64,000 nucleotides of DNA from a virus (lineage: Duplodnaviria > Caudoviricetes), in the IMG/VR virus record IMGVR_UViG_3300032050_000002. The stretch is one strand, 5' to 3'. The first letter of the stretch is position 1; each line of letters opens with the position of its first letter. The notes beneath the pieces are model-generated. The model did not search any database. It saw only the letters and a list, made by a program, of their open reading frames with translations, and was not told the origin of the DNA. The translations under genes and the position numbers were made by a program. Below, piece after piece: positions 2,220-40,390 of the stretch.

Positions 2220-2410
2220 GTTTTCTTTCTTGTTCTTTTTATTGTAGGTTTTTTATCTTCAGTCGGGTATTCTTTTTTATATTTCATATCAACTTCATAT
2301 GGGTTATTACCGTTTTTTTTAGTATCGTATTTCCAAGTTGATACCGTATATTCATCTTCATACACAACTTCCCATTTACGATGATTTTGTTTTTCAATTT
2401 TTGGTTTCAT
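2216..2410 (-). CDS. Hypothetical protein (probably leaderless early gene)
   Basis: ORF track; minus-strand TACATTTG-TAAA-ATG at 2422-2408. Confidence 0.6.
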   Translation of the reverse strand: MKPKIEKQNHRKWEVVYEDEYTVSTWKYDTKKNGNNPYEVDMKYKKEYPTEDKKPTIKRTRKKT

Positions 2411-2582
2411 TTTACAAATGTAATAATTTTTTTTTATATAAATACAAAAGAATATTTGTCAGGTGTATTTTTAATTTTATGACAAAATGACATAACAAAT
2501 AATTTGGCATAGAATTTAATATCTCGCGAACGGACTTGATTCCATAATAAAAAAATAATATAATTAAAAAAAACAGTAAACT

Positions 2583-4433
2583 ATGGGAAAAATTATAGGT
2601 ATTGACCTAGGAACAACAAATTCATGCGTTGCCGTAATGGAAGGTAACGAACCAGTCGTGATTACGAATAACGAAGGAAAAAGAACAACACCATCTATTG
2701 TTGGTTTTGTTAGTGAGGGTGAAAGAAAAATTGGAGACCCTGCAAAAAGACAATCGGTAACCAATCCGAATAAAACAATTTACTCAATTAAAAGATTTAT
2801 GGGCACTAATTTCACAGAGTCTAAAAGTGAGATAGAAAGAGTCCCTTATAAAGTAGTAAAAGGAGATAATAATACTCCAAGAGTTGAAATTGACGATAGA
2901 AAATATTCTCCACAGGAAATATCAGCAATGATTTTACAGAAAATGAAAAAAACCGCTGAAGATTATCTTGGAACTGAGGTTACTGAGGCGGTTATTACGG
3001 TACCGGCTTACTTTAACGATGCTCAAAGACAGGCAACAAAGGAGGCGGGTGAAATTGCAGGACTAACCGTAAAAAGAATTATCAACGAACCTACCGCAGC
3101 CGCCTTAGCCTACGGATTAGATAAGAAAGGTAAAGACCAAAAAATTGTTGTTTTTGATTGTGGTGGAGGAACTCACGATGTATCCGTATTAGAATTAGGT
3201 GATGGAGTGTTTGAAGTACTATCAACGGATGGAGATACTCATTTAGGCGGAGATGATTTTGACCAAGCGATTATTGATTGGTTAGTATCGGAATTTAAAA
3301 CCGAAAATGGGATTGATTTAACTAAAGATTCTATGGCGTTACAAAGATTGAAAGAATCCGCAGAAAAAGCGAAAGTAGAACTATCCTCAACAAGTTCTAC
3401 CGAGATTAACTTACCTTATATTATGCCGGTTGACGGTATCCCAAAACATTTGGTTAGAACGTTAACAAAATCTAAATTCGAACAATTAGTAGATAAATTA
3501 GTCGAAAGAACTATTGAACCTTGTAAATCGGCATTAAAAAATGCGGGATTAAAAACTGAAGAAATTGATGAAATTATTTTAGTTGGTGGAACAACAAGAA
3601 TTCCCGTAATTCAAGACGCAGTTAAAAAATTCTTCGGTAAAGAACCGTCAAAAGGAGTTAATCCTGATGAAGTAGTTGCGTTAGGAGCCGCTATCCAAGG
3701 TGGGGTTTTAGCTGGTGATGTTAAAGATGTTTTATTATTAGACGTTACCCCACTATCATTAGGTATTGAAACAATGGGTGGAGTTTTTACAAAACTTATA
3801 GAATCCAATACAACGATTCCAACTAAACGTTCGCAAGTATTCTCAACTGCCTCGGATAATCAACCAAGTGTTGAGATTCATGTATTACAGGGCGAAAGAG
3901 CGATGGCGAGAGATAATAAAACTATTGGTAAATTTTTCTTAGACGGAATTCCTCCGGCTATGAGAGGTACACCTCAAATTGAGGTTACATTTGATATTGA
4001 TGCAAATGGTATTATTAATGTATCCGCTTTAGATAAAGCAACTAACAAACAACAATCAATCAGAATTGAATCATCTTCAGGGTTGTCAAAAGAAGAAATT
4101 GAAAGGATGAAGAGGGATGCTGAATTAAATGCCGAAAGTGATAAAAAGGCCAAAGAAGATGTGGAGATTTTAAATATAGCGGATAGTACCGTGTTCAATA
4201 TCAAAAAATCTATGACAGATTTAGGTGAAAAAATAACTGAAGAACAAAAAAGTGAGATTAATTCTATAATTGATAAATTAACAGAGTCAATTTCTAAAAA
4301 AGAAATAGATACCGTAACAACTTTAGTTAATGAATTAAATGAAAAGTTTCATAAGATAAGTGAGGAACTTTATAAAACAGAAGAACCTTCAGATATTAAT
4401 CATAACGATGTAGAATTTGAAGAAGTTAAGTAA
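2583..4433 (+). CDS. dnaK: Chaperone DnaK (Hsp70)
   Basis: [33 protein letters not shown]-like, [18 protein letters not shown]; Bacteroidota-style C-terminal DVEFEEVK. Confidence 0.98.
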
Positions 4434-4437
4434 AATT

Positions 4438-4465
4438 AAAAACCCCTCAGTAGAGGGGTTTTTTG
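4438..4465. terminator. Bidirectional intrinsic terminator
   Basis: AAAACCCCTC-AGTA-GAGGGGTTTT hairpin between convergent genes. Confidence 0.8.
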
Positions 4466-4717
4466 TTAATTAGTGTCCTGTGTATTATCGGTTTTTTTTG
4501 TGGTTTTGTCTAAAAACTTTTCTACCACATTACCACCAATACAAACCAAAACAATAACTTTTACCGCATCAACAAGTTCTTCACTTGGTTTAATAGATTC
4601 GTGTTGATACGAATTTAGTAACATAGTTACTGCAATAAATAAAAATCCTAAGAAAGCTATAACTCTCTTAATTGAAGTGTCTCCACCTCCGAACATTGAT
4701 TTGATGAAATTTTTCAT
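4466..4717 (-). CDS. Small two-TM membrane protein, holin-like
   Basis: Two hydrophobic helices and a charged C-terminal tail. Confidence 0.5.
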   Translation of the reverse strand: MKNFIKSMFGGGDTSIKRVIAFLGFLFIAVTMLLNSYQHESIKPSEELVDAVKVIVLVCIGGNVVEKFLDKTTKKTDNTQDTN

Positions 4718-4768
4718 AATTATTATTTTTTATAATAAATATTTACTTTTCATCAAAAGTCTTTTATA

Positions 4769-5761: not shown

Positions 5762-6187
5762 TTAATGTAATTTAATTTCAAATCTATCTTTCATCTGTTC
5801 GATTTTATCATCAGGAACTCCGTGAACATTCTCTCCATTATGTCTATTTTCAACAATGATAGTAAACACTTTATAACCATATTTTTTCGACAGTTCAAAA
5901 TAATGTGTCATTTCCCACTCCATAGTAAAAGTGTTAGAAACTACAATCTCACGATACCATTGGTCGTTAACCATACTATCTTTCATATAAGTCTCAACTA
6001 AATCCTGACAATACTTATGAGCATCTTTTATCTTAGACCCATCGAACTTATATTCACCTGTTTCTTTATCAATAAAATATTTGTCCGCCTCACACACCAA
6101 AAAATCTGAATTAACCAATTTTTTAGCGAATGTTGATTTACCACTACCAGGTAATCCACGAACTATGTATAAAACTTTTTCATCCAT
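5762..6187 (-). CDS. P-loop kinase (AAA_33 / polynucleotide-kinase-like)
   Basis: IVRGLPGSGKST Walker A, CEADKYF, VVSNTF, HGVP motifs. Confidence 0.85.
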   Translation of the reverse strand: MDEKVLYIVRGLPGSGKSTFAKKLVNSDFLVCEADKYFIDKETGEYKFDGSKIKDAHKYCQDLVETYMKDSMVNDQWYREIVVSNTFTMEWEMTHYFELSKKYGYKVFTIIVENRHNGENVHGVPDDKIEQMKDRFEIKLH

Positions 6188-6227
6188 AATACAATTATAA
6201 GGATATTTATTTGGAAAGACAAATATT

Positions 6228-8428: not shown

Positions 8429-8507
8429 AATTAACTAATTGATAATCAATTATAATAAATTTTTTTGTAATAACCAAAATTTAATAAAAAATTCGTATCT
8501 TTGTATT

Positions 8508-9065
8508 ATGAAAAGAGGTAGACTATTAATAAGAACAATAATAAGAGATATTGTTAATATTGTTAAAAATAAAAAAACGGGTTTAATTTATCTACCTGAA
8601 GATAATGATTTTTATTCTGTTGGCAGATTCCCTGTTCAAGTTGGAGTTGAGGTGACGTTAAAACATAACCTAAATTCAGACAATTTTATTGTTAACGCTT
8701 ATTATTCTACCGAAGATGATGTAGTTGAGGTATTAGTTATGTTTAACCCAAATACATTAGAAAAAAATATGTATGACTTAATTGGTGAGTTAAATGAAGT
8801 TGTTACGCACGAATTACAACACTCAATACAAAACTATAACGGTGAATTGGATGATAGAGATAATGAAGATTTACCACCATTGGAATATTATCTTTTACCT
8901 GAAGAACTTGATGCTCAATCAAAAGGTTTTAAAAGATTATCAAAATTAACAAAAACACCTGCCGAGATATTGATTAAAAAATGGTTTGTAAAACATTTAG
9001 ATATACACAATTTAACTGATGAAGAACAGAAAATTGTAACCGATTCTATATTGGAAAATATGTAA
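8508..9065 (+). CDS. Hypothetical protein with HELQH zincin-like motif
   Basis: THELQH plus later EELDA; start reassigned to the ATG after TATCTTTG-TATT. Confidence 0.6.
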   Translation: MKRGRLLIRTIIRDIVNIVKNKKTGLIYLPEDNDFYSVGRFPVQVGVEVTLKHNLNSDNFIVNAYYSTEDDVVEVLVMFNPNTLEKNMYDLIGELNEVVTHELQHSIQNYNGELDDRDNEDLPPLEYYLLPEELDAQSKGFKRLSKLTKTPAEILIKKWFVKHLDIHNLTDEEQKIVTDSILENM

Positions 9066-17468: not shown

Positions 17469-17542
17469 ATAAACAAAAATTTTAACATATTTTTTATATA
17501 TATTTTTTTTGGTTATTATAATTAAATATGTATCTTTGTAGT

Positions 17543-18166
17543 ATGAAAACATTAATCAAAACCGCAATAGTGGCTTCTGTACTACTAACATCTTGCGTAA
17601 ACAAGAATACAGAAAAATCTCAAATTGAACTCGCTAATCAAGAAACAAGTGTTCACGTTTGTAATCATTATGAACACCCTATTAATAATAATGGTCAGAA
17701 ATATTATGACCCAAATAAAACTATCATAATCAGAGGATTAGGTTATGTTAGTCAATCTGACTTAGAATACGCGTCAAAAGTTATAAATGAGTTTTATGGT
17801 TATAAATGTGTTATTTCAGAAAATTTAGAAATATCTAACGAACTATATCTTAATGGTAATCAGTCTGTTATTGAAAGTCATGAGGTTATGGTTAAATATA
17901 ATAACCTTAACACAAGAACTATATTTTTAACCAATAAAAACTTATATCGAGGAACATTAGAACTTAGGGGTTATACAACCACTTACGGTAAGGCGGTTGT
18001 TGTTAAAAGTGATAAATCTTATATGAAAGAGACTTTAATACATGAACTTGGACATACTTTAGGTTTACATCACTGTAATAACTTAACTTGTATCATGGCT
18101 ATTTATAATGACCAATACGATAGTGGTGATTTTTGTAATAAATGTAAAAACTTTTTAAATAAATAA
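17543..18166 (+). CDS. Lipoprotein, archaemetzincin-like Zn metalloprotease
   Basis: Lipobox LLTS/C; HELGHTLGLHHCNNLTCIM...FCNKC. Confidence 0.8.
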   Translation: MKTLIKTAIVASVLLTSCVNKNTEKSQIELANQETSVHVCNHYEHPINNNGQKYYDPNKTIIIRGLGYVSQSDLEYASKVINEFYGYKCVISENLEISNELYLNGNQSVIESHEVMVKYNNLNTRTIFLTNKNLYRGTLELRGYTTTYGKAVVVKSDKSYMKETLIHELGHTLGLHHCNNLTCIMAIYNDQYDSGDFCNKCKNFLNK

Positions 18167-18431: not shown

Positions 18432-18473
18432 AATAAATTTGGCGGATTAATAAAAACTTCATACCTTTGTATT

Positions 18474-19091
18474 ATGAAAACAAATAAATATAAAACAGCG
18501 TTACTTACGGGAGCAATGGTATTACTATCTTCTGTTAGTGTTTCAGCAACCCCTGACAATCAACCCGAACCCCCTAAAAAAGGAACAAAATTACAAGCAA
18601 TTGTAATCAATGGAGATACCTTACCTGTGGTTAATTTAAGTATGGTAACTATCCAAACTGATATGGTTTTTGCCACAAGAAGACAAAGAGAACAATGGGA
18701 TGTGGTTAAATTCAATGTAAGAAAAGTGTACCCATACGCAATATTAGCATCGGCAAAACTAAAAGAATATGAGGTTGCGTTAAGTAAAATACAAGACGAA
18801 GATGACCGTGATGACTATATGAAATACGCCGAAGACCAATTACAAAAACAATTCGGAGAAGAATTAAAAAAATTGTCGATGAAACAAGGTAAAATATTAA
18901 TCAAATTGATTGATAGACAGACTGGTAATACGTCTTATGAACTTGTTAAAAAACTTAGAGGTAGATTCTCAGCCTTTATGTGGCAAGGTGTGGCAAGACT
19001 TTTTGGGTCAAACTTAAAATCTGAGTATGATGCGAATGGTGATGATAAATTAATAGAACTTGCCATAAGACAAATCGAATCAGGAAATTAA
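18474..19091 (+). CDS. DUF4294 family protein (Bacteroidota-type, signal peptide)
   Basis: GDTLPVVNL...VRKVYPYA...QGKILIKLIDRQTGNTSYELVKKLRG pattern recalled for DUF4294. Confidence 0.75.
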   Translation: MKTNKYKTALLTGAMVLLSSVSVSATPDNQPEPPKKGTKLQAIVINGDTLPVVNLSMVTIQTDMVFATRRQREQWDVVKFNVRKVYPYAILASAKLKEYEVALSKIQDEDDRDDYMKYAEDQLQKQFGEELKKLSMKQGKILIKLIDRQTGNTSYELVKKLRGRFSAFMWQGVARLFGSNLKSEYDANGDDKLIELAIRQIESGN

Positions 19092-19127
19092 TTTGGTGGA
19101 TTAAAAAACATTTTGTATCTTTGTATT

Positions 19128-19328
19128 ATGAAAATAACATTAAACATACCCGATGGAGTTTTAGATAGACTTAAAGAATTAGGAATTACTGACGAAACTA
19201 CACAAGAAGAAATGGTAATTGATTTTATTAATGACACTTTAGACTCTCATTACTTCAATGGAATATCCGATAAATTTAAAAAATGGACATTAAAAAAGGA
19301 TAATATTGAACATTATTTAGAAAAGTAA
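19128..19328 (+). CDS. Hypothetical early protein
   Basis: Start reassigned to the ATG after the -7 element. Confidence 0.6.
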   Translation: MKITLNIPDGVLDRLKELGITDETTQEEMVIDFINDTLDSHYFNGISDKFKKWTLKKDNIEHYLEK

Positions 19329-19840
19329 AAATAAATTTGGCAGATTAGAAAACAATTAGTATCTTTGTATTATAAATAAAAACAATAACAATAACAATAT
19401 GACCACACTAAATAAAATCACAAGAATTACAGAGTTAAAGAAAGAAATGAAAACCCTTAAAAAGGGACTCAAAGAAGAAATGATTGATTTTGTAATTAAA
19501 AGTTTCAAGAATAAAGGATTTACTGTTGACCCAAGAAAAGGATATGAGGAAAGAAGTTTATATAATCCAACATTAAAAGTTTCTGTTCGGATTGTAGGTC
19601 TTAACGAAGTATCAGTTTCAATTAGTGCTCATTTAATGAAAAATGATGGTATGAATTGGGACGATAGACAAAAAATCCATAGTGAAGTTAATTGGAACTT
19701 TACCAAAAAAACTTTTGATAAGTATTACGATACAACTTTCAAATCAAAAGTTGAGAGAATTAAAGAATTTATCTAAAAATAAATTTGGCAGATTAGAAAA
19801 CAATTAGTATCTTTGTATTATAAATAAAAACAATAACAAT
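19326..19840 (+). repeat. 67-bp identical direct repeat (19326-19392 and 19774-19840) carrying a full promoter and leader
   Basis: TAAAAATAAATTTGGCAGATTAGAAAACAATTAGTATCTTTGTATTATAAATAAAAACAATAACAAT in both places. Confidence 0.9.
19399..19776 (+). CDS. Hypothetical early protein
   Basis: ORF track; preceded by repeated promoter cassette. Confidence 0.65.
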   Translation: MTTLNKITRITELKKEMKTLKKGLKEEMIDFVIKSFKNKGFTVDPRKGYEERSLYNPTLKVSVRIVGLNEVSVSISAHLMKNDGMNWDDRQKIHSEVNWNFTKKTFDKYYDTTFKSKVERIKEFI

Positions 19841-20173
19841 ATGACAAAATTAACACAAGAAATCATCGAAAAAATTGAAGACACGACATTAAGAATCCAA
19901 GCGTCTCATAGAGGTGGTGGAGTTGAGATAAGTTTATCAGAATGGGGTTACCCTGGTGAAAAAATGACCGCCTATCAAAACTATTTAGGTGGAGGAATGT
20001 TAGGTAGAATTGGAAATGATTGTACGATTCGTAATTGGAGTGGTGATGATACATTAGTAGAAATTGCGGATAACTTAGCAAGATACTTCCACAACATTAC
20101 AAATCATGAGGACGATGAGTGGGAAAGTGCAACATTTGAACAGAATCAAAATAGACCAACAAGAGCATATTAA
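19841..20173 (+). CDS. Hypothetical early protein
   Basis: ORF track; preceded by repeated promoter cassette. Confidence 0.65.
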   Translation: MTKLTQEIIEKIEDTTLRIQASHRGGGVEISLSEWGYPGEKMTAYQNYLGGGMLGRIGNDCTIRNWSGDDTLVEIADNLARYFHNITNHEDDEWESATFEQNQNRPTRAY

Positions 20174-20174
20174 T

Positions 20175-20459
20175 ATGAAAAATAAAACATTGACATTCGA
20201 GGATTTAGAGTTTAAATCTCACGGAAATATTGGTGGAGCAACTCACGCAAAAATGATTTTTGAAAATGGTCATAAGATTTCAGTAGTAGGTGGTGGAATG
20301 GGGTTGTACGGTGATGGGGTAAATACTTTTGAAATATGGAGAAGTTGTGACGAAGACATTAAAGGTCATCTAACCAAAGAAGAGGTTACAGAACAAATGA
20401 TTGAGTTACAGGGTTTACTTTCGGGACATAATCATAGTGATTTAGGTTATCAAGGATAA
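20175..20459 (+). CDS. Hypothetical protein
   Basis: Start reassigned to MKNKTLTFEDL just after the upstream stop. Confidence 0.6.
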   Translation: MKNKTLTFEDLEFKSHGNIGGATHAKMIFENGHKISVVGGGMGLYGDGVNTFEIWRSCDEDIKGHLTKEEVTEQMIELQGLLSGHNHSDLGYQG

Positions 20460-20660: not shown

Positions 20661-21527
20661 ATGTTAAAACTTTTTTTCAATGCAGAAAATAATTTCACTT
20701 TTAATTTTTTTAAAAAAAATGTTGAGCATATAGAGGTGGATATTACTAAATGTGACTATATTATTAATGGAGTTATTCCTACAGGGATGATAGATATTGA
20801 TAGGATAAATAATTTATTAGGATTAAATAATATTGATAATAAAAAATACGTTACATTTTTAATATCGGATTGTGAATCTGAATTAAAACTAAAAAAAAAC
20901 ACGATATTGTTCAGAACATCAACAAATAAAAAAAATAAAAAAAATAATGAATTTGTATTACCTCATATAATTGAAGAAGATTTAAAGTTTAAATTTGAAC
21001 CCCTTTTAAAAGAAAAAAAACCAAATATTGGATTTTGTGGTTATTTTTGCGGTGATTTCACTAAAAGAAAAATTACATGCGAAGAATTTAAAAACTCAGA
21101 TTCAATAAATACTAATTTTATTATTAGAGATAAATTTTGGGGAGGTAAACCCGGTGATAAAACTTTGATTGATGAATTTAAAAAAAATATAAACGATTCT
21201 CATTTTACGATTTGTAATCGAGGGGTTGGAAATTTCTCAATGAGATTTTATGAGGTTTTGTCAATGGGTAGAATTCCGATTTTAATTAACGATAATACGT
21301 GTTTGCCTTTTGAAGACGAAATAAATTGGAATGAATATATTTTTATTGAGGATAATCCAAAAAAATTATTAGATTCGGTTTTAAATTTTTGGGAAAATTC
21401 TTCTCAGGAAGATGTGATTAAACGACAAAAAAAATGCTATGATTTATATTTAAATTATTTTTCATCAAATTCTTACGGAAAAAAAATTAATGAAATTTTA
21501 ATTACTCAAAAAAATTTGGCAGATTAA
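20661..21527 (+). CDS. Exostosin-like (GT47) glycosyltransferase
   Basis: IGFCG, FIIRDKFWG, FTICNRGVGNFSMRFYEVLSMGRIPIL, LPFEDEINW. Confidence 0.8.
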   Translation: MLKLFFNAENNFTFNFFKKNVEHIEVDITKCDYIINGVIPTGMIDIDRINNLLGLNNIDNKKYVTFLISDCESELKLKKNTILFRTSTNKKNKKNNEFVLPHIIEEDLKFKFEPLLKEKKPNIGFCGYFCGDFTKRKITCEEFKNSDSINTNFIIRDKFWGGKPGDKTLIDEFKKNINDSHFTICNRGVGNFSMRFYEVLSMGRIPILINDNTCLPFEDEINWNEYIFIEDNPKKLLDSVLNFWENSSQEDVIKRQKKCYDLYLNYFSSNSYGKKINEILITQKNLAD

Positions 21528-21550
21528 AAAACATTTTGTATCTTTGTATT

Positions 21551-21874
21551 ATGAAAAAAACAACAACAACCAAAAATTCACCTGTTAAGGTGTTACACGA
21601 AACTAAATTAGTAGATAAAGATAGAGCAAGACACACAAGAATATTTGAATTTAATGAAAAGAAATTCAAGTTAATTTATGACCTTAGAAATGGTTTAAGT
21701 GATGTAAGTGTATATGTTATGGATTCAAATGGAGAGTTTAAGTTCGCATTAAACAAGTATGACCTTGGATTTGAATTTGGTTTAAGTTATGTTAGTTACC
21801 CTGCGGATAAAGAAAAGGACATTCTAAAGGCAGTTAAATTAGTTGATGAAGTTGTAATTAAAATTTATAGTTAA
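21551..21874 (+). CDS. Hypothetical early protein
   Basis: Start reassigned to the ATG after the -7 element. Confidence 0.6.
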   Translation: MKKTTTTKNSPVKVLHETKLVDKDRARHTRIFEFNEKKFKLIYDLRNGLSDVSVYVMDSNGEFKFALNKYDLGFEFGLSYVSYPADKEKDILKAVKLVDEVVIKIYS

Positions 21875-23839: not shown

Positions 23840-24217
23840 TTAAAACGGTCTGTCTTGTAAACTATTTGAGTCAACAATTTTAAACTGATATTTATAATCT
23901 AATGTAAATAAAAGATTTATTTCATACATAACCTCAGAGAGACAAATATATTCGTGATAACCTAACATATTCTCCAAAAAATAACGACTTGTGACAACCA
24001 ATCTTTTTGGTGTGTCACAACGTCTTTTATCTCGTAATTTAGAATAATCTATTTTTATTGTTATTTCGTATTCTTCCCACTGTTCATCAGGTTTGGACAT
24101 ACTACCACTACTAGAAAATCTACTAACAGTGCCCGAATGTTCTACATCAACAACTTCTTTTATCCAATCTAATTTGGCTGGTAATAACATTTTTATTATC
24201 TTTGTGGGGTCACTCAT
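23840..24217 (-). CDS. Hypothetical protein
   Basis: ORF track. Confidence 0.5.
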   Translation of the reverse strand: MSDPTKIIKMLLPAKLDWIKEVVDVEHSGTVSRFSSSGSMSKPDEQWEEYEITIKIDYSKLRDKRRCDTPKRLVVTSRYFLENMLGYHEYICLSEVMYEINLLFTLDYKYQFKIVDSNSLQDRPF

Positions 24218-24231
24218 AAAATATAAATACT

Positions 24232-24723
24232 ATGAATATATTCTTTTTAGACATGGATGTTAAAAAATGTGCAGAGTACCATTGTGACAAACACGTTGTT
24301 AAAATGGTACTTGAGACCGCACAACTTCTTTGTTCGGCTCATCATATAACAGACCAAGTAACCGACCAAATACCATATAAGTTGGCTCATAAGAATCATC
24401 CGTGTTCTATATGGGTTAGAGAAAGTTTAACCAATTATCTATACCTTTGTGAGTTAGGTTTGGAGTTATGTAAAGAATATAGTTACAGGTATGAAAAACG
24501 ACACAAATCTCAAGAAGTAATAGAATGGTGTGTAACAAATAAGGTAAAAATTTGTGACAAAGGATTAACAGAGCCACCAAAGGCAATGCCCGATGAATAC
24601 AAAGTTAAAGACGTTGTAGAGTCCTACAGGAACTATTATATGGGGGCAAAAAAATCTTTTGCAACGTGGAAAAAAAGGGACACTCCTATTTGGTATAATT
24701 TTGAAAAAAATTTGGCAGATTAA
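24232..24723 (+). CDS. Pyrimidine-dimer DNA glycosylase family protein
   Basis: MNIFFLD...CDKHVVKMVLETAQLL, YKLAHKNHPCSIW, YRNYY. Confidence 0.8.
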   Translation: MNIFFLDMDVKKCAEYHCDKHVVKMVLETAQLLCSAHHITDQVTDQIPYKLAHKNHPCSIWVRESLTNYLYLCELGLELCKEYSYRYEKRHKSQEVIEWCVTNKVKICDKGLTEPPKAMPDEYKVKDVVESYRNYYMGAKKSFATWKKRDTPIWYNFEKNLAD

Positions 24724-24746
24724 AAAACATTTTGTATCTTTGTATT

Positions 24747-25370
24747 ATGAAAACAATAATAAAAACAATAACAATCGCATCAACTGTTTTGTTATCATCA
24801 ATCAGTTGTAGTTTTAAAACAAAACCAGAATCATTTAAAGATGGTGATATAATATTCCACACATCTAAGTCACAACAAAGTAAAATGTTAAAATCCGCTA
24901 CGGGTTCTAATTTAACTCACGTTGGTGTTATTTTTTATAAAAATGGGTTACCTTATGTAATTGAGGCGGTACAACCTGTTAAAGTTACTAGTTTAAACTC
25001 TTTCATTAACAGAGGTGAAAATGCTAAATACAAAGTAATGAGATATGAAACCGAATTAACTAATGAAGATAAAAATAAAATGATTTCTTGGGGTAAAAAA
25101 CAACTAGGTAAACCGTACGATATTAAATTCCAATGGGGAGATAATACGATGTATTGTTCAGAGTTAGTTTGGAAAATGTATAAAAATGCGGGTATTGAGT
25201 TGTGTGAAACTAAAAAATTTTCGGACTTTAATTTAACTAACGAAAAAGTAAGGCAAGCAATAAAAAGTAGATTTAAAAATAAAAATGAATTTAGTTTAAA
25301 TGAAGTAGTGGTTGCTCCTGTTGATATTTACAATAGTGATAAATTAAATTTAATCTATTCTAATTTTTAA
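24747..25370 (+). CDS. YiiX/YebB-like permuted NlpC/P60 cysteine hydrolase, lipoprotein-like
   Basis: GDIIFHTS, THVGVI, GKPYD, YCSELVWKMY; N-terminal signal with SC. Confidence 0.85.
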   Translation: MKTIIKTITIASTVLLSSISCSFKTKPESFKDGDIIFHTSKSQQSKMLKSATGSNLTHVGVIFYKNGLPYVIEAVQPVKVTSLNSFINRGENAKYKVMRYETELTNEDKNKMISWGKKQLGKPYDIKFQWGDNTMYCSELVWKMYKNAGIELCETKKFSDFNLTNEKVRQAIKSRFKNKNEFSLNEVVVAPVDIYNSDKLNLIYSNF

Positions 25371-26461
25371 ACTGAGCCAGAATCAATACCAAATAACTTC
25401 ATTTCCCTTGTCATCATATTAGGAGTTGGGAAACATTTATCGGGTATATTGACTCCTGAAGCCTTAACAACCTCTAAAGCATATGTGCCGCAATTAGCGG
25501 CATCATTGCTAATACTAAAATCAAGAGCACTATAGTCTTTTTCTTTTACACTTTTCGCGTAACTAATACCTTGTGATATATTAGGAGCAACTGTTAACAC
25601 CCAATCCATAGGTAATCTAGGTCCTTCCCCTTCAGTTCTTGATTTAATAATTTTAACAACGTCCTCAATATTTAAAATATTTTCACCATCTATTTTTGCA
25701 ATTTTACCTAAATTTTTACTGACAACAGTACCAAATCCTTTAGTTTTTACACCAGCGTATCTACCAAATTCAAATATCTCAACATTACCATTTGAATTTA
25801 CCGTGGCAACTCCACCGTGACCTAATTTACCATATGTTTTATCATTTCTAAAAGGATTTTCACCTTTAAATAAATCGGTTACAACATCTTTACCCGAAAG
25901 AGATAAGATTTTAATTGCATATGCGGACATTATATCAAATTTTGAATTACCATCCACTTTTGGTTTATACGTTGGAAATGAAAATGTTATGACAAATCCT
26001 TTATCTGTTTTTATTGTTGGTCTTTCTAAAGTACCTTTGTTTTTAGATTTTAATAAACTATCATCTTTATTAACAACTCCAGAACTTTTTGTAGAACAAC
26101 TTCCTTCTTTTTGATATCTTAATAATGCTTTATTTGTGATATTACCAAATCTACCGTCATCACTACCTTTAGGTAAACAACCTAGTTGTATTAATTTACC
26201 TTGTAATATTTTAACATCATCTCTTGTTGATGGTTTTTTGTTTGTCCCATCCCCAAGTTTTAAATTTTTAGGATTAATATCCTCAATAGGTTTACTAACG
26301 TTAGTATCAACAGGTTTAGTTATTTTATTATCAACGCTTTTAGTGCTTGTTGATGGAAAATAAGGTAATTCCTCATTTAATAAATGTTTACTTATAGCGT
26401 TTTTGTGCATTTCAAGAATCCTACTTTTTTCAGATTCATCAATAAATAATTTGTTTTTCAT
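25367..26461 (-). CDS. Leader + peptidoglycan-binding domain + putative His/Cys (permuted papain-like) hydrolase
   Basis: DVKILQGKLIQLG...DGRFGNITNKALLRYQ (PG_binding_1-like); GHGGVA and NCGTYA. Confidence 0.6.
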   Translation of the reverse strand: MKNKLFIDESEKSRILEMHKNAISKHLLNEELPYFPSTSTKSVDNKITKPVDTNVSKPIEDINPKNLKLGDGTNKKPSTRDDVKILQGKLIQLGCLPKGSDDGRFGNITNKALLRYQKEGSCSTKSSGVVNKDDSLLKSKNKGTLERPTIKTDKGFVITFSFPTYKPKVDGNSKFDIMSAYAIKILSLSGKDVVTDLFKGENPFRNDKTYGKLGHGGVATVNSNGNVEIFEFGRYAGVKTKGFGTVVSKNLGKIAKIDGENILNIEDVVKIIKSRTEGEGPRLPMDWVLTVAPNISQGISYAKSVKEKDYSALDFSISNDAANCGTYALEVVKASGVNIPDKCFPTPNMMTREMKLFGIDSGSV

Positions 26462-27831
26462 ACTAAATAAATATTTGGTAATTTGAGAATATTTTCATAA
26501 ATTTGTATTATGAAAACAATAATAATCATAACATCAATTTTGACTATATACATAATCTCTAATTTTTTTTCATATGAAGAAATTTTTGTGGTTAATAGTA
26601 TTCCTCAAAACAATTTTAAAAATTTTAATTACAAGTCTCAAAATATTGACGAGTTAATTAATGAGTCTTTAGATATTACATTAAATGAGTTGTCTTTTGA
26701 CTTAAAAAGTCAATATAATTCTGATGTTAATAAATTAAACGAAACACATGTCGCCCATTGTATTGGGTATTCTAATTATTTTAATTCTGTTTTACATAAA
26801 TTAGTAGTTAATAATAATTTAAAAAATATTAAAATAACTCACGTTAGGGCTAAAGTTAAATTTTTAGGTGCGAATCTTCATGTTATAAACATGAAAGAAT
26901 TTAAAGACCATGATATTTGTGTAGTATACGACAACAATACGAATAAAAAATATATTATTGACCCAAGTCTTTCTGAAGTTTTTGGTAAAATAATTATTAA
27001 ACAGTAATATTAACCGGAAATCCTTTATATTCACCAGTCTCTCTAAAAGCCACTGTATTTCTAATAACACTATAAAGTGTAGATTTGCCATTCCACCAAC
27101 TACCAACTTGGTCAACAAAACTCTTCATAAGGTCTTCTTTAGTTTTGCCTTCAGTATTAAAATCATATGTATCTAAAACAGTAACTTTTGATTTGTCGGG
27201 AGATACTCTGATATTCGGAGGGTCTATTCGTCCAAGAGTATACATAAATTGACCTGCTAATTCAGGTTTAAGTAAACTTCCTTGACCTCCTTTATCTAAA
27301 AGTTTTTTGTTTTCTTTTTCAGACCCGGCTACAGTCATTGATGTTGGTAAATTACCAGCACCAATCTCTTTCCATAAAGGATAGTTTAATCCTCTTTTGG
27401 CGTTTGCGATTGCAACCTTTTTTAGAAATATTTGTTCATCAGCGGTTAAATCTTTAGCGGTAAATGGCTCCGTTCTTCCGACCAAATAATCCATTAAAGC
27501 TCTTATGTGTAAAGGTAATGAAGATTTTTTTGATTGGGGTATGTTATTAATAAATGTTTTCATTTCTAGATATTTATCAATATTTCCACCATATAAATTT
27601 CTTTCAAATTCACCCCCTCTACCTAAATAATCACTGGATAATGGTTTATTAGTGTAATGTAAATCATTAGTTGTATTATCATTTTGAGTTTTAATTCCTA
27701 CCGATTTACAACTTCCTTCTTTTTGATATCTTAATAATGCTTTATTTGTGATATTACCAAATCTACCGTCATCACTACCTTTAGGTAAACAACCTAGTTG
27801 TATTAATTTACCTTGTAATATTTTAACATCA
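26096..27831. repeat. 124-bp identical repeat (26096-26219 and 27708-27831) encoding the shared PG-binding domain
   Basis: Direct comparison of both copies. Confidence 0.9.
26510..27007 (+). CDS. Hypothetical protein with N-terminal TM and possible transglutaminase-like Cys-His-Asp triad
   Basis: HCIGYS, DHDICV, IIDPS. Confidence 0.45.
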   Translation: MKTIIIITSILTIYIISNFFSYEEIFVVNSIPQNNFKNFNYKSQNIDELINESLDITLNELSFDLKSQYNSDVNKLNETHVAHCIGYSNYFNSVLHKLVVNNNLKNIKITHVRAKVKFLGANLHVINMKEFKDHDICVVYDNNTNKKYIIDPSLSEVFGKIIIKQ

Positions 27832-28016
27832 GCGTTTAATGATGGATTTTTTGAGGTTCCGTCGCCAAGTTTTAATTTTTTGGGGTTTATATTTATATTC
27901 TTGTTATTTGGAACATAAAGTGATTCCTCATTTAATAAATGTTTACTTATAGCGTTTTTGTGCATTTCAAGAATCCTACTTTTTTCAGATTCATCAATAA
28001 ATAATTTGTTTTTCAT
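26997..28016 (-). CDS. Leader + peptidoglycan-binding domain + unrelated C-terminal domain (TLG...DTYDFN)
   Basis: Identical N-terminal 31 aa and PG-binding segment to 25367-26461; different C-terminus. Confidence 0.65.
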   Translation of the reverse strand: MKNKLFIDESEKSRILEMHKNAISKHLLNEESLYVPNNKNININPKKLKLGDGTSKNPSLNADVKILQGKLIQLGCLPKGSDDGRFGNITNKALLRYQKEGSCKSVGIKTQNDNTTNDLHYTNKPLSSDYLGRGGEFERNLYGGNIDKYLEMKTFINNIPQSKKSSLPLHIRALMDYLVGRTEPFTAKDLTADEQIFLKKVAIANAKRGLNYPLWKEIGAGNLPTSMTVAGSEKENKKLLDKGGQGSLLKPELAGQFMYTLGRIDPPNIRVSPDKSKVTVLDTYDFNTEGKTKEDLMKSFVDQVGSWWNGKSTLYSVIRNTVAFRETGEYKGFPVNITV

Positions 28017-28079
28017 ACTAAATAAATATTTGTTTTAATCATAAATATTTACTATCTTTGTAAAATAAATCTAATAAAT

Positions 28080-28418
28080 ATGGCAACAAGAGCGTCAATA
28101 GTAATGAAAGAAGAAGGTAAACCAATGTTAGCGGTTTACAAACATTGGGATGGTTATCCTTCAGGACTTGGTAAAAGTTTGGAAGAAATTGTTATGGGGG
28201 GACAGATAACCAATGGTTTGGGTATTAACTCAGAATTAGGTAAAGTGTTTAACGGAGCGGGTTGTTTATTCGCATCAATAATATCAATTTTGAAAGATAA
28301 ACCTGGTGATGTATATATCACAAGTTTAGATAGTGTAGGTAATTCAGGTGAAGAATATATTTATGAGATTGACGTGAACGGAAAAGACGTTCAATTAACT
28401 CATAAAGAAAACAGATAA
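28080..28418 (+). CDS. Conserved phage hypothetical protein (HWDGYP motif)
   Basis: MATRASI...YKHWDGYPSGLG. Confidence 0.7.
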   Translation: MATRASIVMKEEGKPMLAVYKHWDGYPSGLGKSLEEIVMGGQITNGLGINSELGKVFNGAGCLFASIISILKDKPGDVYITSLDSVGNSGEEYIYEIDVNGKDVQLTHKENR

Positions 28419-29776: not shown

Positions 29777-29974
29777 CATAAATAATTGACATATTGAAAA
29801 ACTCAATTATATTTATGATTGTTGACTTCGTGGGTTTTAAGTGGAAGTCACCCAATAAAAGATAGATACAGAAATGGGACTATCAACAAATTACCCTTTG
29901 ACACCTACCTAAACGGTAGGTTTTTTTATTTAAAAAAATTTGGTAAATTCAAAAAAAGTTCGTATCTTTGTATT

Positions 29975-31039
29975 ATGTTAGAGACTCTAAATAGATACTT
30001 TGAAGACGGACTTCTGTATAAACAGACTCACCCTACTCTTCCTTTAACTATATGGAATTACACCGAGAAAGTTCAATACGAGAACTTATGGGATGAAATA
30101 ACCATACAGACCAGAGGTTTGGTAACTGATGATAAGGGAAATATAGTTGCTAGACCTTTTAAAAAGTTTTTCAATTTAGAGGAAAAAAAACATACCGCAA
30201 CCCCTTACTTTGAAGTTTTCGATAAAATGGATGGTTCATTGGGGATATTGTTTAATTATGAGGGAGAATGGATAATGGCAACCAGAGGTTCATTCACCTC
30301 AGACCAAGCGGTTAAAGGATTTGAGTTACTTCAAAAATACGACTATAAAAGATTGGTTAAAGGTTTTACCTACCTATTTGAGATAATATACCCTGAGAAC
30401 AGAATAGTTGTTAATTATGGTTATGAGGATTTAATATTGTTATCTGTAATAGATAATAAAGATGGTTATGAATTAAAGATATTTGATGATTCTATCCATA
30501 TAGAAGGTATAAGATTAAGAAACCTATATAACAATTTAGGGTTTAAATTGGTTAAAAAATACGATGGTATAAAAGACTATAACACCTTAAAAAATATGGT
30601 TAAAGACAATGAAGAAGGTTTTGTGGTTAGGTTTTCAAATGGGGAAAGGGTCAAAATAAAAGGTGAAGAATATATAAGACTTCACAAAATAATGACCAAT
30701 GTATCAACCACCGGTATATGGGAAATATTAAGTACCGGTGGAAACTTTGAGGAAATACTTAAAGATGTTCCTGATGAGTTCTACAATAAAATAAAGGACT
30801 ACGAAAAAGAGTTGAGGTATCAATACTTTTCAATATCAGAATACTGCGGTAAATTACATGACGGATTTAGATATGGTAAATACGGTGATAAAGAAGAACC
30901 CACCAAAAAGGAATACGCTGAATTTGTTATGAAAAACGTAAAACCCGAATTCAGACCTATAATGTTTTTTATGTGGGATAAAAAGAATTATGACCAGATA
31001 ATATGGAAACTCATAAGACCCGAATTTAAAAAACTATAA
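29975..31039 (+). CDS. T4 Rnl1-like RNA ligase
   Basis: RGLVTD, RPFKKFFN, DKMDGSLG (KxDG), TYLFEII, EEGFVV, VKIK; start reassigned to the ATG after the -7 element. Confidence 0.9.
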   Translation: MLETLNRYFEDGLLYKQTHPTLPLTIWNYTEKVQYENLWDEITIQTRGLVTDDKGNIVARPFKKFFNLEEKKHTATPYFEVFDKMDGSLGILFNYEGEWIMATRGSFTSDQAVKGFELLQKYDYKRLVKGFTYLFEIIYPENRIVVNYGYEDLILLSVIDNKDGYELKIFDDSIHIEGIRLRNLYNNLGFKLVKKYDGIKDYNTLKNMVKDNEEGFVVRFSNGERVKIKGEEYIRLHKIMTNVSTTGIWEILSTGGNFEEILKDVPDEFYNKIKDYEKELRYQYFSISEYCGKLHDGFRYGKYGDKEEPTKKEYAEFVMKNVKPEFRPIMFFMWDKKNYDQIIWKLIRPEFKKL

Positions 31040-33992: not shown

Positions 33993-34387
33993 TTGTTAAT
34001 TAAGATTTTTTTATTACCTTTGTAAAACATTTGAGGAAAGGTTAATATTTATAGTTTCTCGAATGAAAAAAAAAGTTTGAGAAAAATTTGGTAAATTAAA
34101 AAATTCTTCTTATCTTTGTAAAACAAATCGGGAATGTCCGATTAGTTCTTTGAAAAAAAAGTTTTAGAAAAATTTGGTAAATCCAAAAATAATTCTTACC
34201 TTTGTAAAAGAAAATCGGAGTAAAAAACTGATAGATTCTTTGAAAAAGAAGTTTAAGAAAAGTTTGACAGAACAGAAAATTTTTCTTAACTTTGTAAAGA
34301 GTTTGAAAGTGGGAATGAGGTCATAAAGATTCCTTACTTAGTAAGGTTATAAAGGTTCCTCACCACAATCAACTCGGTTCTTTGAAA
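33993..34387 (+). promoter_or_regulatory. Four tandem Bacteroidota sigma-A promoters with three hairpin + boxA-like elements
   Basis: -7 TAnnTTTG at 34015, 34111, 34197, 34287; -33 TTTG at 34087, 34173, 34263 (20-nt spacers); (G/A)TTCTTTGAAA at 34145, 34235, 34377. Confidence 0.85.
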
Positions 34388-34394: not shown

Positions 34395-35247
34395 TTATCC
34401 ATTCAGTCCTCGATTATGAGACCTTCGGGTTGATTATGAGGGGATACTGATAAATGATAATCGGCCGTATATGGTCGTTAAATAAACTACGAAAGTAGGA
34501 TAAAGTGGGGTCACCTGTGTTAGTGATTCTGCGGCTCGGGAAACTGAGCTCGAGTATACAAGTGGGATATCATCCGACCTTTAGTACTGAGGGCAACGCT
34601 TTAGGGAAAGTGGTTTGGTGACCGAGCAATGTGGATTGTTAGGTTGAGTTCGGAAGAACAATAAGAATAACTCATAGGAATCCTGTAAAAGGTGTGGTTA
34701 TCCGACCATATTATTGCGGTTTCCAATTTAAAAGTGGACTTAAAACCGAAAGGTAAGATGGAGAACGAGTGGTGTCGCTACCGTCCTTATTAACGACCCG
34801 CCAAGGTTGTGATATGAAGTAAACTTAAAGAATGGAGATGGGGACATTTCACGGAGTAGTTTGGCATTCAGTTGTTCAAAAGATGACTGAACCTAAGGCA
34901 GACCACTACTTCGATTAATCCACGACACGTACTTAAATAAACTAAAAATTTGTTCAAAGGAAAAGTGTCTGTCAGGTATCGATGAAAGGTGACTACATAG
35001 TAATGAGTCGTTCATTGCACACGAAGACCCCAAGTCTGAATGTAATCTTACCAAAAACCTCTAGTTCCGCAAGAACGAGTTGGGGAGGCATCCTCGAAGA
35101 GAGTTGAGTAATAAGAGAGTAATTGATACCTCAAGGAGTGGTTTACCTAAATAACCGTCACTGAGGAATACTTTCCAAAAAAAAGTGGAAATGTGAGGAA
35201 CTAATAATCTCACTAAAGGTTCTCAAGTAATGGTGTATTCTCAGCCA
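34395..35247 (+). ncRNA. Large (~850 nt) ornate structured RNA, GOLLD-like
   Basis: No credible ORF, raised GC, many UUCG/GNRA-capped hairpins (34421-30, 34487-98, 34514-29, 34745-54), long-range AGTGGT(34768)/ACCACT(34902), size, tRNA adjacency and a 3' end (GTATTCTCAG) resembling my recollection of GOLLD. Boundaries approximate. Confidence 0.7.
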
Positions 35248-35265: not shown

Positions 35266-35340
35266 TGCGGGTCAGAGAAATGGTAACTCGTTAGGCTCAT
35301 AACCTAAAGACGGATGGTTCGATTCCATCACCCGCTACCA
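35266..35340 (+). tRNA. tRNA-Met (CAT), initiator-like, CCA encoded
   Basis: GCGGGT/ACCCGC acceptor with unpaired U1:U72, A11:U24, TTAGG-CTCATAA-CCTAA anticodon arm, GATGG-TTCGATT-CCATC T arm, ACCA end. Confidence 0.92.
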
Positions 35341-36996: not shown

Positions 36997-36997
36997 A

Positions 36998-37567: not shown

Positions 37568-37637
37568 TCTTTATCTTCCACTTAAAATTACTATTTTTAT
37601 TTTACCCTTGAGGTATAAACAATTTAATCTTTGTAAA

Positions 37638-37928
37638 ATGGGACTTACTTATTTTGCTTTAGGAGCTCTGTCGATTGTGGCCGTGATATTTGTTATGGTT
37701 ATAGTTATCGGTACTAATAAAATTTTTAGATTAGAAAAAAAAGTTGAGGATTTTCAAACTCAATATGGAAATGACTTAGAAAGAAGTTATAGAAATTTGG
37801 ATGAATTTCGTCAAAACATTTATCGTGATATGGACGTTAGAATTGGTGGTCTATATAGAAATATGGATGAACAAATTAAAGAATCTAAAAAGTATACGGA
37901 TAAACGAATAGATAAGAGTTTAAACTAA
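37638..37928 (+). CDS. Single-TM + coiled-coil protein
   Basis: Start reassigned to MGLTYFALG; hydrophobic N-terminus. Confidence 0.6.
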   Translation: MGLTYFALGALSIVAVIFVMVIVIGTNKIFRLEKKVEDFQTQYGNDLERSYRNLDEFRQNIYRDMDVRIGGLYRNMDEQIKESKKYTDKRIDKSLN

Positions 37929-37934
37929 AAAAAT

Positions 37935-37962: not shown

Positions 37963-37963
37963 T

Positions 37964-38350: not shown

Positions 38351-38354
38351 ATAA

Positions 38355-38406
38355 TGTTAAAGAACTTTCTGAATACAAATATACAACAAAAACTTGAAAT
38401 AACAAA
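38355..38406 (-). promoter_or_regulatory. tmRNA promoter (TTTG-N19-TATATTTG) followed by boxA GTTCTTTAACA
   Basis: Minus strand: -33 at 38406-03, -7 at 38383-76, boxA at 38365-55. Confidence 0.8.
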
Positions 38407-38433
38407 TTTTTAAGATATTTATTTCATATAAAT

Positions 38434-39555
38434 ATGTCCAATAGATTGCAAAATAACAAAATAAGACGGATTTTTGAGTCTGACGAGCCTCAAACAACCT
38501 ATCAAAAACTATTAAAAATCGCTCAAAGTACGGAAGACCCTAATATTACCTTTGATGAGGAGATTGTTTTTAATTTTACATACAATCAAAGAACACCTAG
38601 AAAAAGTATGATTACTTTAAACTTTGATACTGATGAAGATTATTTCCAACTATTCTATGAAACTGAAGACAATCCAAAATATATGGAAAGAATTATTAAT
38701 GATAGGAGATATTATGATAGGTTTGAATTTGAATCTTCAGATTATATTTGGGAAGATTGGAAAGAAGGATATATACTTATGGATTTTAATGATGAAAATA
38801 TTTTAAAACTTAAAGATATTTTACTAATGGTAAATCCTGAATTGGCGGATTTTAATCCTAATCTAGATGACAAATCCTCATCAATCGCGAGATTTTTACA
38901 CAACACATTTGAGCGTGAAATTGATTATATTTTAGATGAACGTTGGCAATTAGTTAATGATTGTAAAGTACAATCGGAACAGAACAATATTAAAAAAGAT
39001 ATGTGTGATAGGTTATTTAACTATGGTATTTTTAGTAAGGGGGATTGTTTTGAAACTTACGTAACATCAGTTAATATTTTAATATCTTTATACGAAGAAA
39101 CCAAAAATTTTGACGTAGATTTATATGAAATGTTAAAACAAGTGGCAATTAATACACAAGCCCCTGATTATTACGAATATTATTATGAAACAAGTTGTGA
39201 TAATTGGGAGGAAGTTTCCACGGCATTTAATCAAGAGATTTCAAAAAGACTCGATGAAATTTTGGACAGAATTGAAAATAGTGACGAATTTAATTTTAAT
39301 AGAGATTTATTTAAACTGTATAGTAAAGAAGTTTACAATAACTACCAAATTAATAGATGGTATGAATTACCATATAACAAAGAATATTCATTTCGTTTAG
39401 TGAGAGTTGAACCAGCAAACGATAGAATTGTTTTATTTTTTCAAAAACCTAATAGTCAACAAGAAAAAAGAAGTTATAATTTAGAAGGTTTTATTGACTT
39501 TTTACATAATCCGGAACTTTTTGAAAATAAAATTAGGAAAATAAGAAAAATCTAA
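38434..39555 (+). CDS. Hypothetical acidic protein
   Basis: ORF track. Confidence 0.7.
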   Translation: MSNRLQNNKIRRIFESDEPQTTYQKLLKIAQSTEDPNITFDEEIVFNFTYNQRTPRKSMITLNFDTDEDYFQLFYETEDNPKYMERIINDRRYYDRFEFESSDYIWEDWKEGYILMDFNDENILKLKDILLMVNPELADFNPNLDDKSSSIARFLHNTFEREIDYILDERWQLVNDCKVQSEQNNIKKDMCDRLFNYGIFSKGDCFETYVTSVNILISLYEETKNFDVDLYEMLKQVAINTQAPDYYEYYYETSCDNWEEVSTAFNQEISKRLDEILDRIENSDEFNFNRDLFKLYSKEVYNNYQINRWYELPYNKEYSFRLVRVEPANDRIVLFFQKPNSQQEKRSYNLEGFIDFLHNPELFENKIRKIRKI

Positions 39556-39568
39556 CTATCTTTGTATT

Positions 39569-40390
39569 ATGCAAAGAGATTATAACCTACTTAAAACTGT
39601 ATTATCAGTCCCAACCAAAACTTACCAAGAAGATATGATGGTTGAATTTTTAACCAATTGGTTAAAAGAAAATAATTTTTCATTTACCACCGATAATATG
39701 AAAAATATCTATGTTACAAAACAAACTGACAAAGATATTGAATATTTTCCTTGTGTGGTGTCTCATATTGATACGGTTCATAATATAGAACCAATTAATA
39801 TAAAAGAAGAGACATTAGTAAATGAACAAAGAAATTATAAACTAGCCTTAAAAGCTTATAACGATTTAGGTAAACCAACAGGAATTGGTGGTGATGATAA
39901 ATGCGGTGTCTATGCTTGTCTTGAATTATTAAAAGAATTACCAAACATTAAAGTCGCATTTTTTGTGTCAGAAGAAACGGGATGTCACGGTTCAAGAAAT
40001 TCGGACAAAGAATTTTTTAAAAATGTTGGTTACGCAATTCAGTTTGATGCACCAGGTAATACAATGGTTAGCGAATATTGTATGGGAGTTCAATTATTTG
40101 ATAGAGAATCCGAATTTTTTAGTTCTTGTGATAGGATATTAAATGAAAGTTTTAAAAACGCTCCAAGATATCAATCACATCCTTATACCGATGTTTACGC
40201 CTTAAAATCATTGTTCGATTTTTCTTGTATTAATTTTGCTATTGGATATTACAATTATCATACAAGAAATGAATACGTTGTTGTTGAGGATGTCTATAAT
40301 GGAATTAGTGCCGGTAAAAAGTTAATAGAATCTTTGGGTTATAAAAAATATAAAAAAGTTACCAAAGAAAAATCAGTTTTATTTGGATAA
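39569..40390 (+). CDS. M20/M28 family Zn peptidase
   Basis: SHIDTVH, GGDDKCG, SEETG, QFDAPG, YYNYHT. Confidence 0.85.
   Translation: MQRDYNLLKTVLSVPTKTYQEDMMVEFLTNWLKENNFSFTTDNMKNIYVTKQTDKDIEYFPCVVSHIDTVHNIEPINIKEETLVNEQRNYKLALKAYNDLGKPTGIGGDDKCGVYACLELLKELPNIKVAFFVSEETGCHGSRNSDKEFFKNVGYAIQFDAPGNTMVSEYCMGVQLFDRESEFFSSCDRILNESFKNAPRYQSHPYTDVYALKSLFDFSCINFAIGYYNYHTRNEYVVVEDVYNGISAGKKLIESLGYKKYKKVTKEKSVLFG

Follow-up and report, generated by a model that had tools for sequence, protein, structure and literature searches.

The stretch of DNA analyzed here, hereafter the window, comprises 64,000 nucleotides (nt) of a virus of the class Caudoviricetes (Duplodnaviria), a lake phage of Bacteroidota archived as IMG/VR record IMGVR_UViG_3300032050_000002. 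It carries a series of genes in which a promoter box of the form TAnnTTTG, the -7 element of host-type (Bacteroidota) promoters, is separated by exactly 4 nt from the ATG that opens the gene, an arrangement referred to below as the box-N4-ATG layout. Bacteroidota initiate translation without Shine-Dalgarno pairing and leaderless messages are rare among them, so that a phage lineage in which most of the host-type promoters sit directly on start codons is unexpected. A preliminary description of the window had listed ten such genes, mostly with TATT between box and ATG, as well as two near matches at 6187(-) and 37638; all of them are present where it had placed them, the near matches being real one-mismatch boxes at the same 4-nt distance. 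They are listed here with the near matches last.

2408..2422, minus strand: 64-residue protein of unknown function (open reading frame [ORF] 2216-2410); TACATTTG-TAAA-ATG; TTTG 22 nt upstream of the box, TATTTAT motif 27 nt before the ATG.
8496..8510, plus strand: 185-residue protein of no family (8508-9065); TATCTTTG-TATT-ATG; -33 TTTG absent at the usual spacing.
17531..17545, plus strand: 207-residue metallopeptidase (M54/M10-like) with a lipoprotein-type signal peptide; TATCTTTG-TAGT-ATG; -33 TTTG at 19 nt.
18462..18476, plus strand: 205-residue DUF4294 protein with a signal peptide; TACCTTTG-TATT-ATG; -33 TTTGG at 20 nt.
19116..19130, plus strand: 66-residue protein; TATCTTTG-TATT-ATG; -33 TTTGG at 20 nt.
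21539..21553, plus strand: 107-residue protein; TATCTTTG-TATT-ATG; module from the -33 element to the ATG the same as at 24735.
24735..24749, plus strand: 207-residue C92 (YaeF/YiiX-type) amidase with a lipoprotein-type signal peptide; TATCTTTG-TATT-ATG.
26498..26512, plus strand: 165-residue protein with a hydrophobic N-terminus; TAAATTTG-TATT-ATG.
29963..29977, plus strand: 354-residue Rnl1-type RNA ligase (29975-31039); TATCTTTG-TATT-ATG; a terminator-like hairpin (29903-29921) with a T tract adjoins the -33 element upstream.
39557..39571, plus strand: 273-residue M20/M28-type peptidase; TATCTTTG-TATT-ATG; TTAG at the -33 position.
6185..6199, minus strand, near match: 141-residue P-loop kinase (AAA_33; 5762-6187); TATAATTG-TATT-ATG.
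37626..37640, plus strand, near match: 96-residue membrane protein; AATCTTTG-TAAA-ATG.

The general pattern TANNTTTGNNNNATG has 12 matches in the window, as compared to a mean of 1.92 and a maximum of 6 in dinucleotide-shuffled versions of the same DNA, none of 100 of which reaches 12. Two of the 12, at 20324+ and 53283-, open only 4 and 10 codons, respectively, and can be set aside as chance background, in agreement with the roughly two matches expected. The other ten are the listed sites, each of which uses AUG as its start codon and opens an ORF of 64-354 codons with no further in-frame ATG among the next 13 codons; the spacer is TATT at eight of them, TAAA at 2410(-) and TAGT at 17543. When boxes are considered that have an ORF of at least 50 codons starting within 45 nt, ten of the 23 in the window lie at 4 nt from the start codon, and every other distance occurs at most once.

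Searches of Pfam and PHROGs gave a family for five of the ten proteins, a different and unrelated one in each case (the M54/M10-like metallopeptidase, DUF4294, the C92 amidase, the Rnl1-type RNA ligase and the M20/M28 peptidase), and none for the other five. The ten are not paralogues of one another, and the count of sites is thus not inflated by paralogy, though the promoter modules themselves are very similar. Lipoprotein-type signal peptides in three of the ten begin exactly at the box-N4 ATG, which fixes the start codon there, and together with N-termini that are kept from residue 1 in orthologues they identify the ATG as the start codon; for the near-match kinase at 6187(-) the P-loop at residues 12-18 fixes the start in the same way. 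It had been proposed that the MYLCIM or MYLCSM extensions carried by some of the ORF calls are spurious, and this is borne out, since they arise from a TTG or ATG five codons upstream that lies inside the start of the box or overlaps it. False N-terminal extensions of this kind are what gene callers add to genes with the layout. The kinase (5762-6187, minus strand), whose AAA_33 assignment denotes the fold of the T4 Pnk kinase domain, and the Rnl1-type ligase (29975-31039, plus strand) both stand behind box-N4-ATG heads, and their co-occurrence suggests an RNA-repair pair of the T4 kind.

The constancy of the 4-nt distance was followed in orthologues that were collected from IMG/VR by protein, not by promoter, and counted as distinct upstream sequences. 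Among orthologues of the M20/M28 peptidase (39569), at 67-77% protein identity, the exact box lies at 4 nt in 38 of 47 contexts and a one-mismatch box occupies the same place in 9, while the spacer letters and the variable letters of the box differ widely. For the 64-residue protein (2410-), with orthologues at 44-60% identity, 14 of 20 contexts have the exact box at 4 nt and 4 a one-mismatch box in the same place; one has a box at 23 nt and one has none. Orthologues of the Rnl1-type ligase (29975) have a box in 13 of 39 contexts, at 4 nt in ten, 5 nt in one, 3 nt in two and 15-30 nt in none, and those that lack a box of their own come after a gene whose leader is A-rich. Genes next to these orthologues supplied 14 more distinct examples of the 4-nt distance. 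For the 8508 protein, IMG/VR viral contigs yielded no orthologue. A distance that is kept while the letters vary is what selection for a transcription start on the AUG predicts. Hundreds of related phages have kept the layout.

Enrichment of the 4-nt spacing, which the preliminary description had anticipated for whole genomes, is also evident when relatives of the window are counted. The close relative G006 (IMGVR_UViG_3300042451_001197, a 107-kb fragment) has 27 matches as compared to 2 for a reversed-pattern control, and 23 of the 27 are linked to ORFs. Five complete relatives with genomes of 272-349 kb have 14, 16, 12, 2 and 10 matches, as against 6, 6, 2, 7 and 7 for their respective controls; four of the five thus have 10-16 matches, the exception being G004, with 2 versus 7. 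Distances between ORF-linked boxes and start codons in G003 show two peaks, one at 4-5 nt (16 cases) and another at 16-21 nt (21 cases). Across a broader sample of IMG/VR contigs that share the promoter consensus, 97 sites were counted, of which 12 lie at 4 nt and 43 at 20-27 nt. In Cellulophaga phage phi38:1, taken as a control, the box lies 20-31 nt before six annotated genes, 5 nt before one and 2 nt before one. Since phi38:1 has essentially no 4-nt sites, the layout is not general to phages of the Flavobacteriia. The phylum and its phages have it at low frequency; in the lineage considered here it has been amplified, most strongly in the branch that holds the window and G006, whose sites are mainly of the TATCTTTGTATTATG version. 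For uncultured phages of Bacteroidota, the 15-nt signature can serve to correct start codons and to locate transcription units.

The identity of the box as a promoter element is supported by its sequence context. The ten boxes all read TAnnTTTG without G at the variable positions, and the -33 TTTG(G) element of Bacteroidota primary sigma promoters lies 19-20 nt upstream in seven of them and 22 nt upstream in one, with TTAG at that position in another and no such element in the tenth. A profile was made from 96 non-redundant box-N4-ATG sites pooled from the window and its relatives. It is T-rich at -36 to -34, has G or T at -33 and often G at -32, and is rich in A and T from -24 to -17. Position -4 is a pyrimidine in 96% of the sites and position -1 in 78%; 40 different spacer tetramers occur among them. 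No G appears at the two variable box positions of the profile, by design of the search pattern, which excluded it there, so that the profile is no test of that point. An A fixed at +4, as in lambda cI, is not conserved among the 96 sites (A in 52%, G in 36%). The profile agrees with the promoter described for Flavobacterium johnsoniae, TAHHTTTG, in which the -33 element is weak too (PMC6847099), and fits the primary-sigma promoters described for Bacteroides fragilis and Flavobacterium psychrophilum. These features support the assignment of the ten boxes to the host primary sigma factor (sigma-A, or sigma-ABfr, of Bacteroidota), with a -33 TTTG(G), about 20 nt, and a -7 TAnnTTTG.

Where transcription from such a promoter would begin can be read from work on the hosts. 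The F. johnsoniae box is numbered T-12, A-11, T-8, T-7, T-6, G-5, with 4-5 nt from box to start in probable promoters (PMC6847099), and the -7 box of F. psychrophilum spans -12 to -5 (PMC9723704). With the box at -12 to -5 and 4 nt after its final G, position +1 falls on the A of the ATG. Precedents were sought by comparing twelve TTTG-N4-ATG strings with the 5'-end RNA sequencing data for F. psychrophilum (Table S2 of PMC9723704), a sample and not a census. Among the matches listed, six of six box-N4-ATG sites have their 5' end mapped to the A of the ATG, including holB (207 reads) and THC0290_0187 (139 reads), both at distance 0 from the annotated start codon. The box-N4-ATG geometry therefore yields leaderless RNA in a Flavobacterium.

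The DNA before the ten start codons points the same way. A high A content before the ATG is expected of initiation regions of the Bacteroidota type. The A fraction at -20 to -1 is 0.28 in the ten genes versus 0.53 in the other genes of the window (p = 7e-6), a difference that is partly trivial in that the box takes 8 of the 20 positions; it implies that the ten genes would have no A-rich initiation region on a read-through RNA either. Leaderless genes are typified by an AUG that lacks an upstream ribosome-binding signal and by a core promoter element that stands close to the start codon at a set distance. The ten genes have ATG in ten of ten cases together with the low A fraction just given, and their promoter box stands at exactly 4 nt. 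Predicted folding energies of the first 40 nt do not differ between the ten genes and the others (-1.6 versus -1.75 kcal/mol, p = 0.74) and provide no argument either way. The earlier proposal that the A of the ATG is the transcription start is accordingly backed, as a predicted start, by the published box numbering, by the six F. psychrophilum precedents among the matches listed, by a spacing that is kept while the spacer varies and by the lack of an A-rich leader.

The reading that we favor, with a probability of about 0.75, is that primary-sigma promoters of the host type have been placed such that the A of the ATG is the first base of the RNA, leaving the message without a 5' leader. By the spacing rule and by analogy to the Flavobacterium precedents, this is most likely the start site, and translation of the message is most likely leaderless as well. 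RNA polymerase would begin on the A to give a transcript with pppAUG at its 5' end; for translation, the ribosome and initiator tRNA would bind the 5'-terminal AUG directly and not by way of an A-rich leader. Promoter and ATG together would then make up a minimal, self-contained expression head that could precede any ORF, and many of the genes behind such heads are in fact accessory genes that vary between relatives. Several observations weigh against this reading. The F. psychrophilum sites come from a string-search sample and are six among the matches listed, and the low A fraction owes something to the box itself, as noted above. The sites at 8496 and 39557 lack a canonical -33 TTTG, and the gene at 2410(-) has the TATTTAT motif 27 nt upstream in addition to its box. 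The polymerase of the actual host may pick its starts slightly differently, and a shift of a single base would destroy or alter the AUG. A terminator-like hairpin is present upstream of only one of the ten promoters (29903-29921), and leadered read-through transcripts may for that reason coexist with leaderless ones in tandem arrays.

Taken further, this last point becomes an alternative in which the boxes are real promoters and the adjoining genes are read mainly from longer, read-through RNAs; each promoter would then serve the genes downstream, and its tight spacing to the ATG would reflect genome compaction. The scarcity of hairpins is in keeping with such transcription, as are the head-to-tail arrays in the window (17543, 18474, 19128, 19399, 19841) and the Rnl1-type ligase orthologues that have no box of their own and follow a gene with an A-rich leader. 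Compaction, however, does not predict one exact distance, and 4 nt is the distance in 47 of 47, 18 of 20 and 10 of 13 orthologue contexts, one-mismatch boxes included, with 0-2 nt never seen and 6-15 nt almost never. The ten genes would, moreover, have an unusually A-poor initiation region on a read-through RNA, and some of the units are single genes, such as 8508-9065, which faces a convergent gene. We regard this alternative as unlikely and prefer a start on the ATG.

A second alternative takes its cue from the modularity of these promoters. Between the -33 element and the ATG the modules at 21505 and 24701 do not differ, and neither do those at 19326 and 19774 over a length of 68 nt; the module at 19082 is close to these, and all precede unrelated genes. 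The region is only patchily syntenic with G006: the gene content around the modules differs, modules have been relocated, and the 8508 unit (promoter, ATG, ORF and stop, ~8460-9064, ~605 bp) is a clean single-gene insertion relative to an intergenic site of G006 at ~19125-19147. With regard to breakpoints at modules, the comparison with G006 offers individual observations, this one clean case plus the relocated modules. These observations would suit a module of ~45-68 nt that is chiefly a recombination or cassette-boundary element, with a fixed distance to the ATG that was inherited by copying and not selected. The PeSL cassettes (composites of promoter and stem-loop) of T4-type phages (PMC2839356, PMC4122927) are a natural model, since they also place near-identical early-promoter modules before unrelated accessory genes in variable regions and differ in gene content between close relatives. 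PeSLs, however, combine an early promoter with a stem-loop terminator and have ordinary leaders, whereas nine of the ten sites here have no hairpin partner (the exception being that at 29903-29921) and the promoter abuts the ATG. Diverged orthologues have changed in their flanks, in the variable letters of the box and in the spacer, and not in the distance, which speaks for selection on spacing as opposed to recent copying. We regard this reading as very unlikely; it is compatible with transcripts that begin on the AUG. Finally, a chance or compositional effect of an AT-rich genome (~30% G+C, with two of the 12 matches clearly due to chance) is refuted by the shuffles, none of 100 of which reaches 12 (mean 1.9), by the reversed-pattern control in G006 (27 versus 2) and by the conservation of the layout in orthologues, particularly those of the M20/M28 peptidase.

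Not all of the host-type promoters in the window have the layout. The following sites carry the same type of promoter in other settings.

19360..19401, plus strand: leadered sibling (ATG 19399); the same promoter, reading TATT-AT and then A where the others have G; the ATG follows at 31 nt from the box, leader ~27 nt.
19808-19843, plus strand: second copy of the leadered sibling (ATG 19841); leader ~21 nt.
24197..24234, plus strand: same type of promoter before the gene at 24232-24723; leader ~23 nt.
28053..28082, plus strand: same type of promoter before the gene at 28080-28418; leader ~15 nt.
34015..34294, plus strand: a tandem array of four such promoters that precede no ORF, 560-840 nt upstream of a GOLLD RNA (34852-35247).

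The claim of the preliminary description that early genes are "systematically" leaderless is therefore overstated, in view of four or five promoters of the same type with leaders of 15-27 nt and four more upstream of the GOLLD region. The siblings at 19360 and 19808 read TATCTTTG-TATT-ATA where genes with the leaderless layout read TATCTTTG-TATT-ATG, so that the same A could be used as +1, and the leader would then have the length most common in the phylum. Leaderless-layout and leadered genes behind the same promoter constitute a natural set for comparison. The GOLLD RNA itself (34852-35247, plus strand) is full-length (Rfam RF02032, 317.7 bits) and is directly followed by a tRNA-Met (35266-35340, plus strand). 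Two minus-strand paralogues (25367-26461 and 26997-28016) have their 5' parts and divergent promoter regions covered by two direct repeats of ~180 nt with 84-91% identity, at 26096-26533 and 27708-28088. Each repeat is paired with a plus-strand host-type promoter, that at 26498 having the leaderless layout and that at 28053 the 15-nt leader.

A different motif, (A)TATTTAT(A), is found 5-31 nt before 28 gene starts, which include most of the structural genes, and is mostly followed by an A-rich leader. Examples are given on the next line.

4717(-), 9698(-), 24217(-), 26461(-), 28016(-), 43388, 49996, 51774, 52244, 55724, 57204, 58231 and 59308: gene starts with the TATTTAT motif.

In the structural region at 48-64 kb this motif and A-rich leaders take the place of the host-type box, and TATTTAT is a candidate for a phage-specific middle or late promoter. 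The expectation that late genes have A-rich leaders mostly holds; it does not extend to seven genes of the TATTTAT class that have only 5-7 nt between motif and ATG, some of which might have very short leaders as well. Host-type promoters need no phage factor, and the genes that they precede are probably expressed from the start of infection; on the basis of promoter type, the box-N4-ATG genes are presumed to be early.

The preliminary description had also raised the idea of an early-to-late switch in translation, tied to a ribosomal protein and a tRNA that are encoded in the window.

56437..56625, minus strand: phage bS21 (PF01165), with its likely true start at ATG 56625 (MIIVKLDK...) and not at 56673.

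The bS21 ORF at 56437-56673(-) is probably annotated 16 codons too long, as the protein from 56625 aligns without gaps to residues 1-57 of F. johnsoniae bS21 (7JIL) and likewise to the bS21 of another ribosome entry (9I5V). Both S42 and Tyr54 are kept, the latter a Bacteroidota-specific residue that contacts the 3' tail of 16S rRNA. Upstream of the gene is GATATTTG-TATAAT-ATG, a one-mismatch box at 6 nt from the ATG. In the tRNA-Met (CAT), U1-U72 at the head of the acceptor stem is unpaired, and the anticodon stem has no more than two G-C pairs where it joins the loop; the molecule is in its sequence only partly initiator-like, with one initiator hallmark and not the three-G-C one. It has been observed that E. 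coli ribosomes without uS2 and bS21 favor the leaderless lambda cI mRNA (PMC10491246), and a link from this preference to the phage bS21 is conceivable by analogy. There would then be two translation classes, one leaderless and driven by host-type promoters, the other with A-rich leaders behind TATTTAT, and bS21, made along with the virion genes, would shift ribosomes from the first to the second. We give this scheme little credence. All five complete relatives encode bS21, including G004, where the layout is not enriched (2 matches versus 7 for the control), so that bS21 does not predict the layout in this comparison, a small sample of five genomes that is phylogenetically confounded; a switch tied to the phage bS21 or tRNA finds no support in the comparisons made here. 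If true, a shift of this kind would be the first concrete role in mRNA selection for a phage ribosomal protein. Which mRNAs a phage bS21 selects is a question that has been stated in the literature (PMC9976891), and the two mRNA classes described here bear on it and suggest a direct experiment.

Among other genes in the window, the one at 2583-4433 (plus strand) codes for full-length Hsp70/DnaK (858 bits), and that at 40403-42439 (minus strand) for a ClpB-type double AAA+ disaggregase. When the structural region was compared with GenBank phages by megablast, no match resulted.

In the window, bS21 lies on the reverse strand in the midst of the terminase, portal and capsid genes, as has been described for bS21-encoding Bacteroidota phages of freshwater lakes by Chen et al. 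2022 (PMC9723584). The relatives of the window are 270-350 kb lake phages, all of which have bS21. That study differs in having no analysis of promoters, start sites or leaders, and the words promoter, early and leaderless are absent from it. We found no paper that describes the box-N4-ATG layout for Bacteroidota phages; leaderless phage messages, as in lambda cI and phage phiYS40, and host genes with this geometry are already known. The lambda cI mRNA from pRM resembles the predicted transcripts in being a phage mRNA that starts at its own AUG (PMC10491246). It differs in that it represents a single regulatory gene of a temperate coliphage, as opposed to a class of genes, and is made from a sigma-70 promoter in a host that uses Shine-Dalgarno pairing. 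In the large Thermus phage phiYS40, the genes of one temporal class yield leaderless mRNA, with a proposed shift of host translation (IF2 up, IF3 down), although the leaderless class there consists of middle and late genes (PMC3594737) and here of genes with host-type promoters that are presumed to be early; no change of initiation factors is known for the phage of the window. Its host phylum, Deinococcus-Thermus, commonly uses leaderless mRNA (PMC12340547). A further parallel is with the hosts themselves: leaderless mRNAs of Flavobacterium and Bacteroides, such as those of holB and THC0290_0187, are alike in promoter elements and geometry (PMC9723704). Leaderless mRNAs make up 5.5% of mRNAs in F. 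psychrophilum (PMC9723704), leaders shorter than 10 nt account for 3.7% in B. thetaiotaomicron, and leaders of at most 10 nt for 13% in F. johnsoniae (PMC6847099). What is a minority layout in these bacteria is found in the window at about 10-12 of the 15-17 host-type promoters that precede protein genes, or about two thirds of them, and has been kept gene by gene across the phage lineage.

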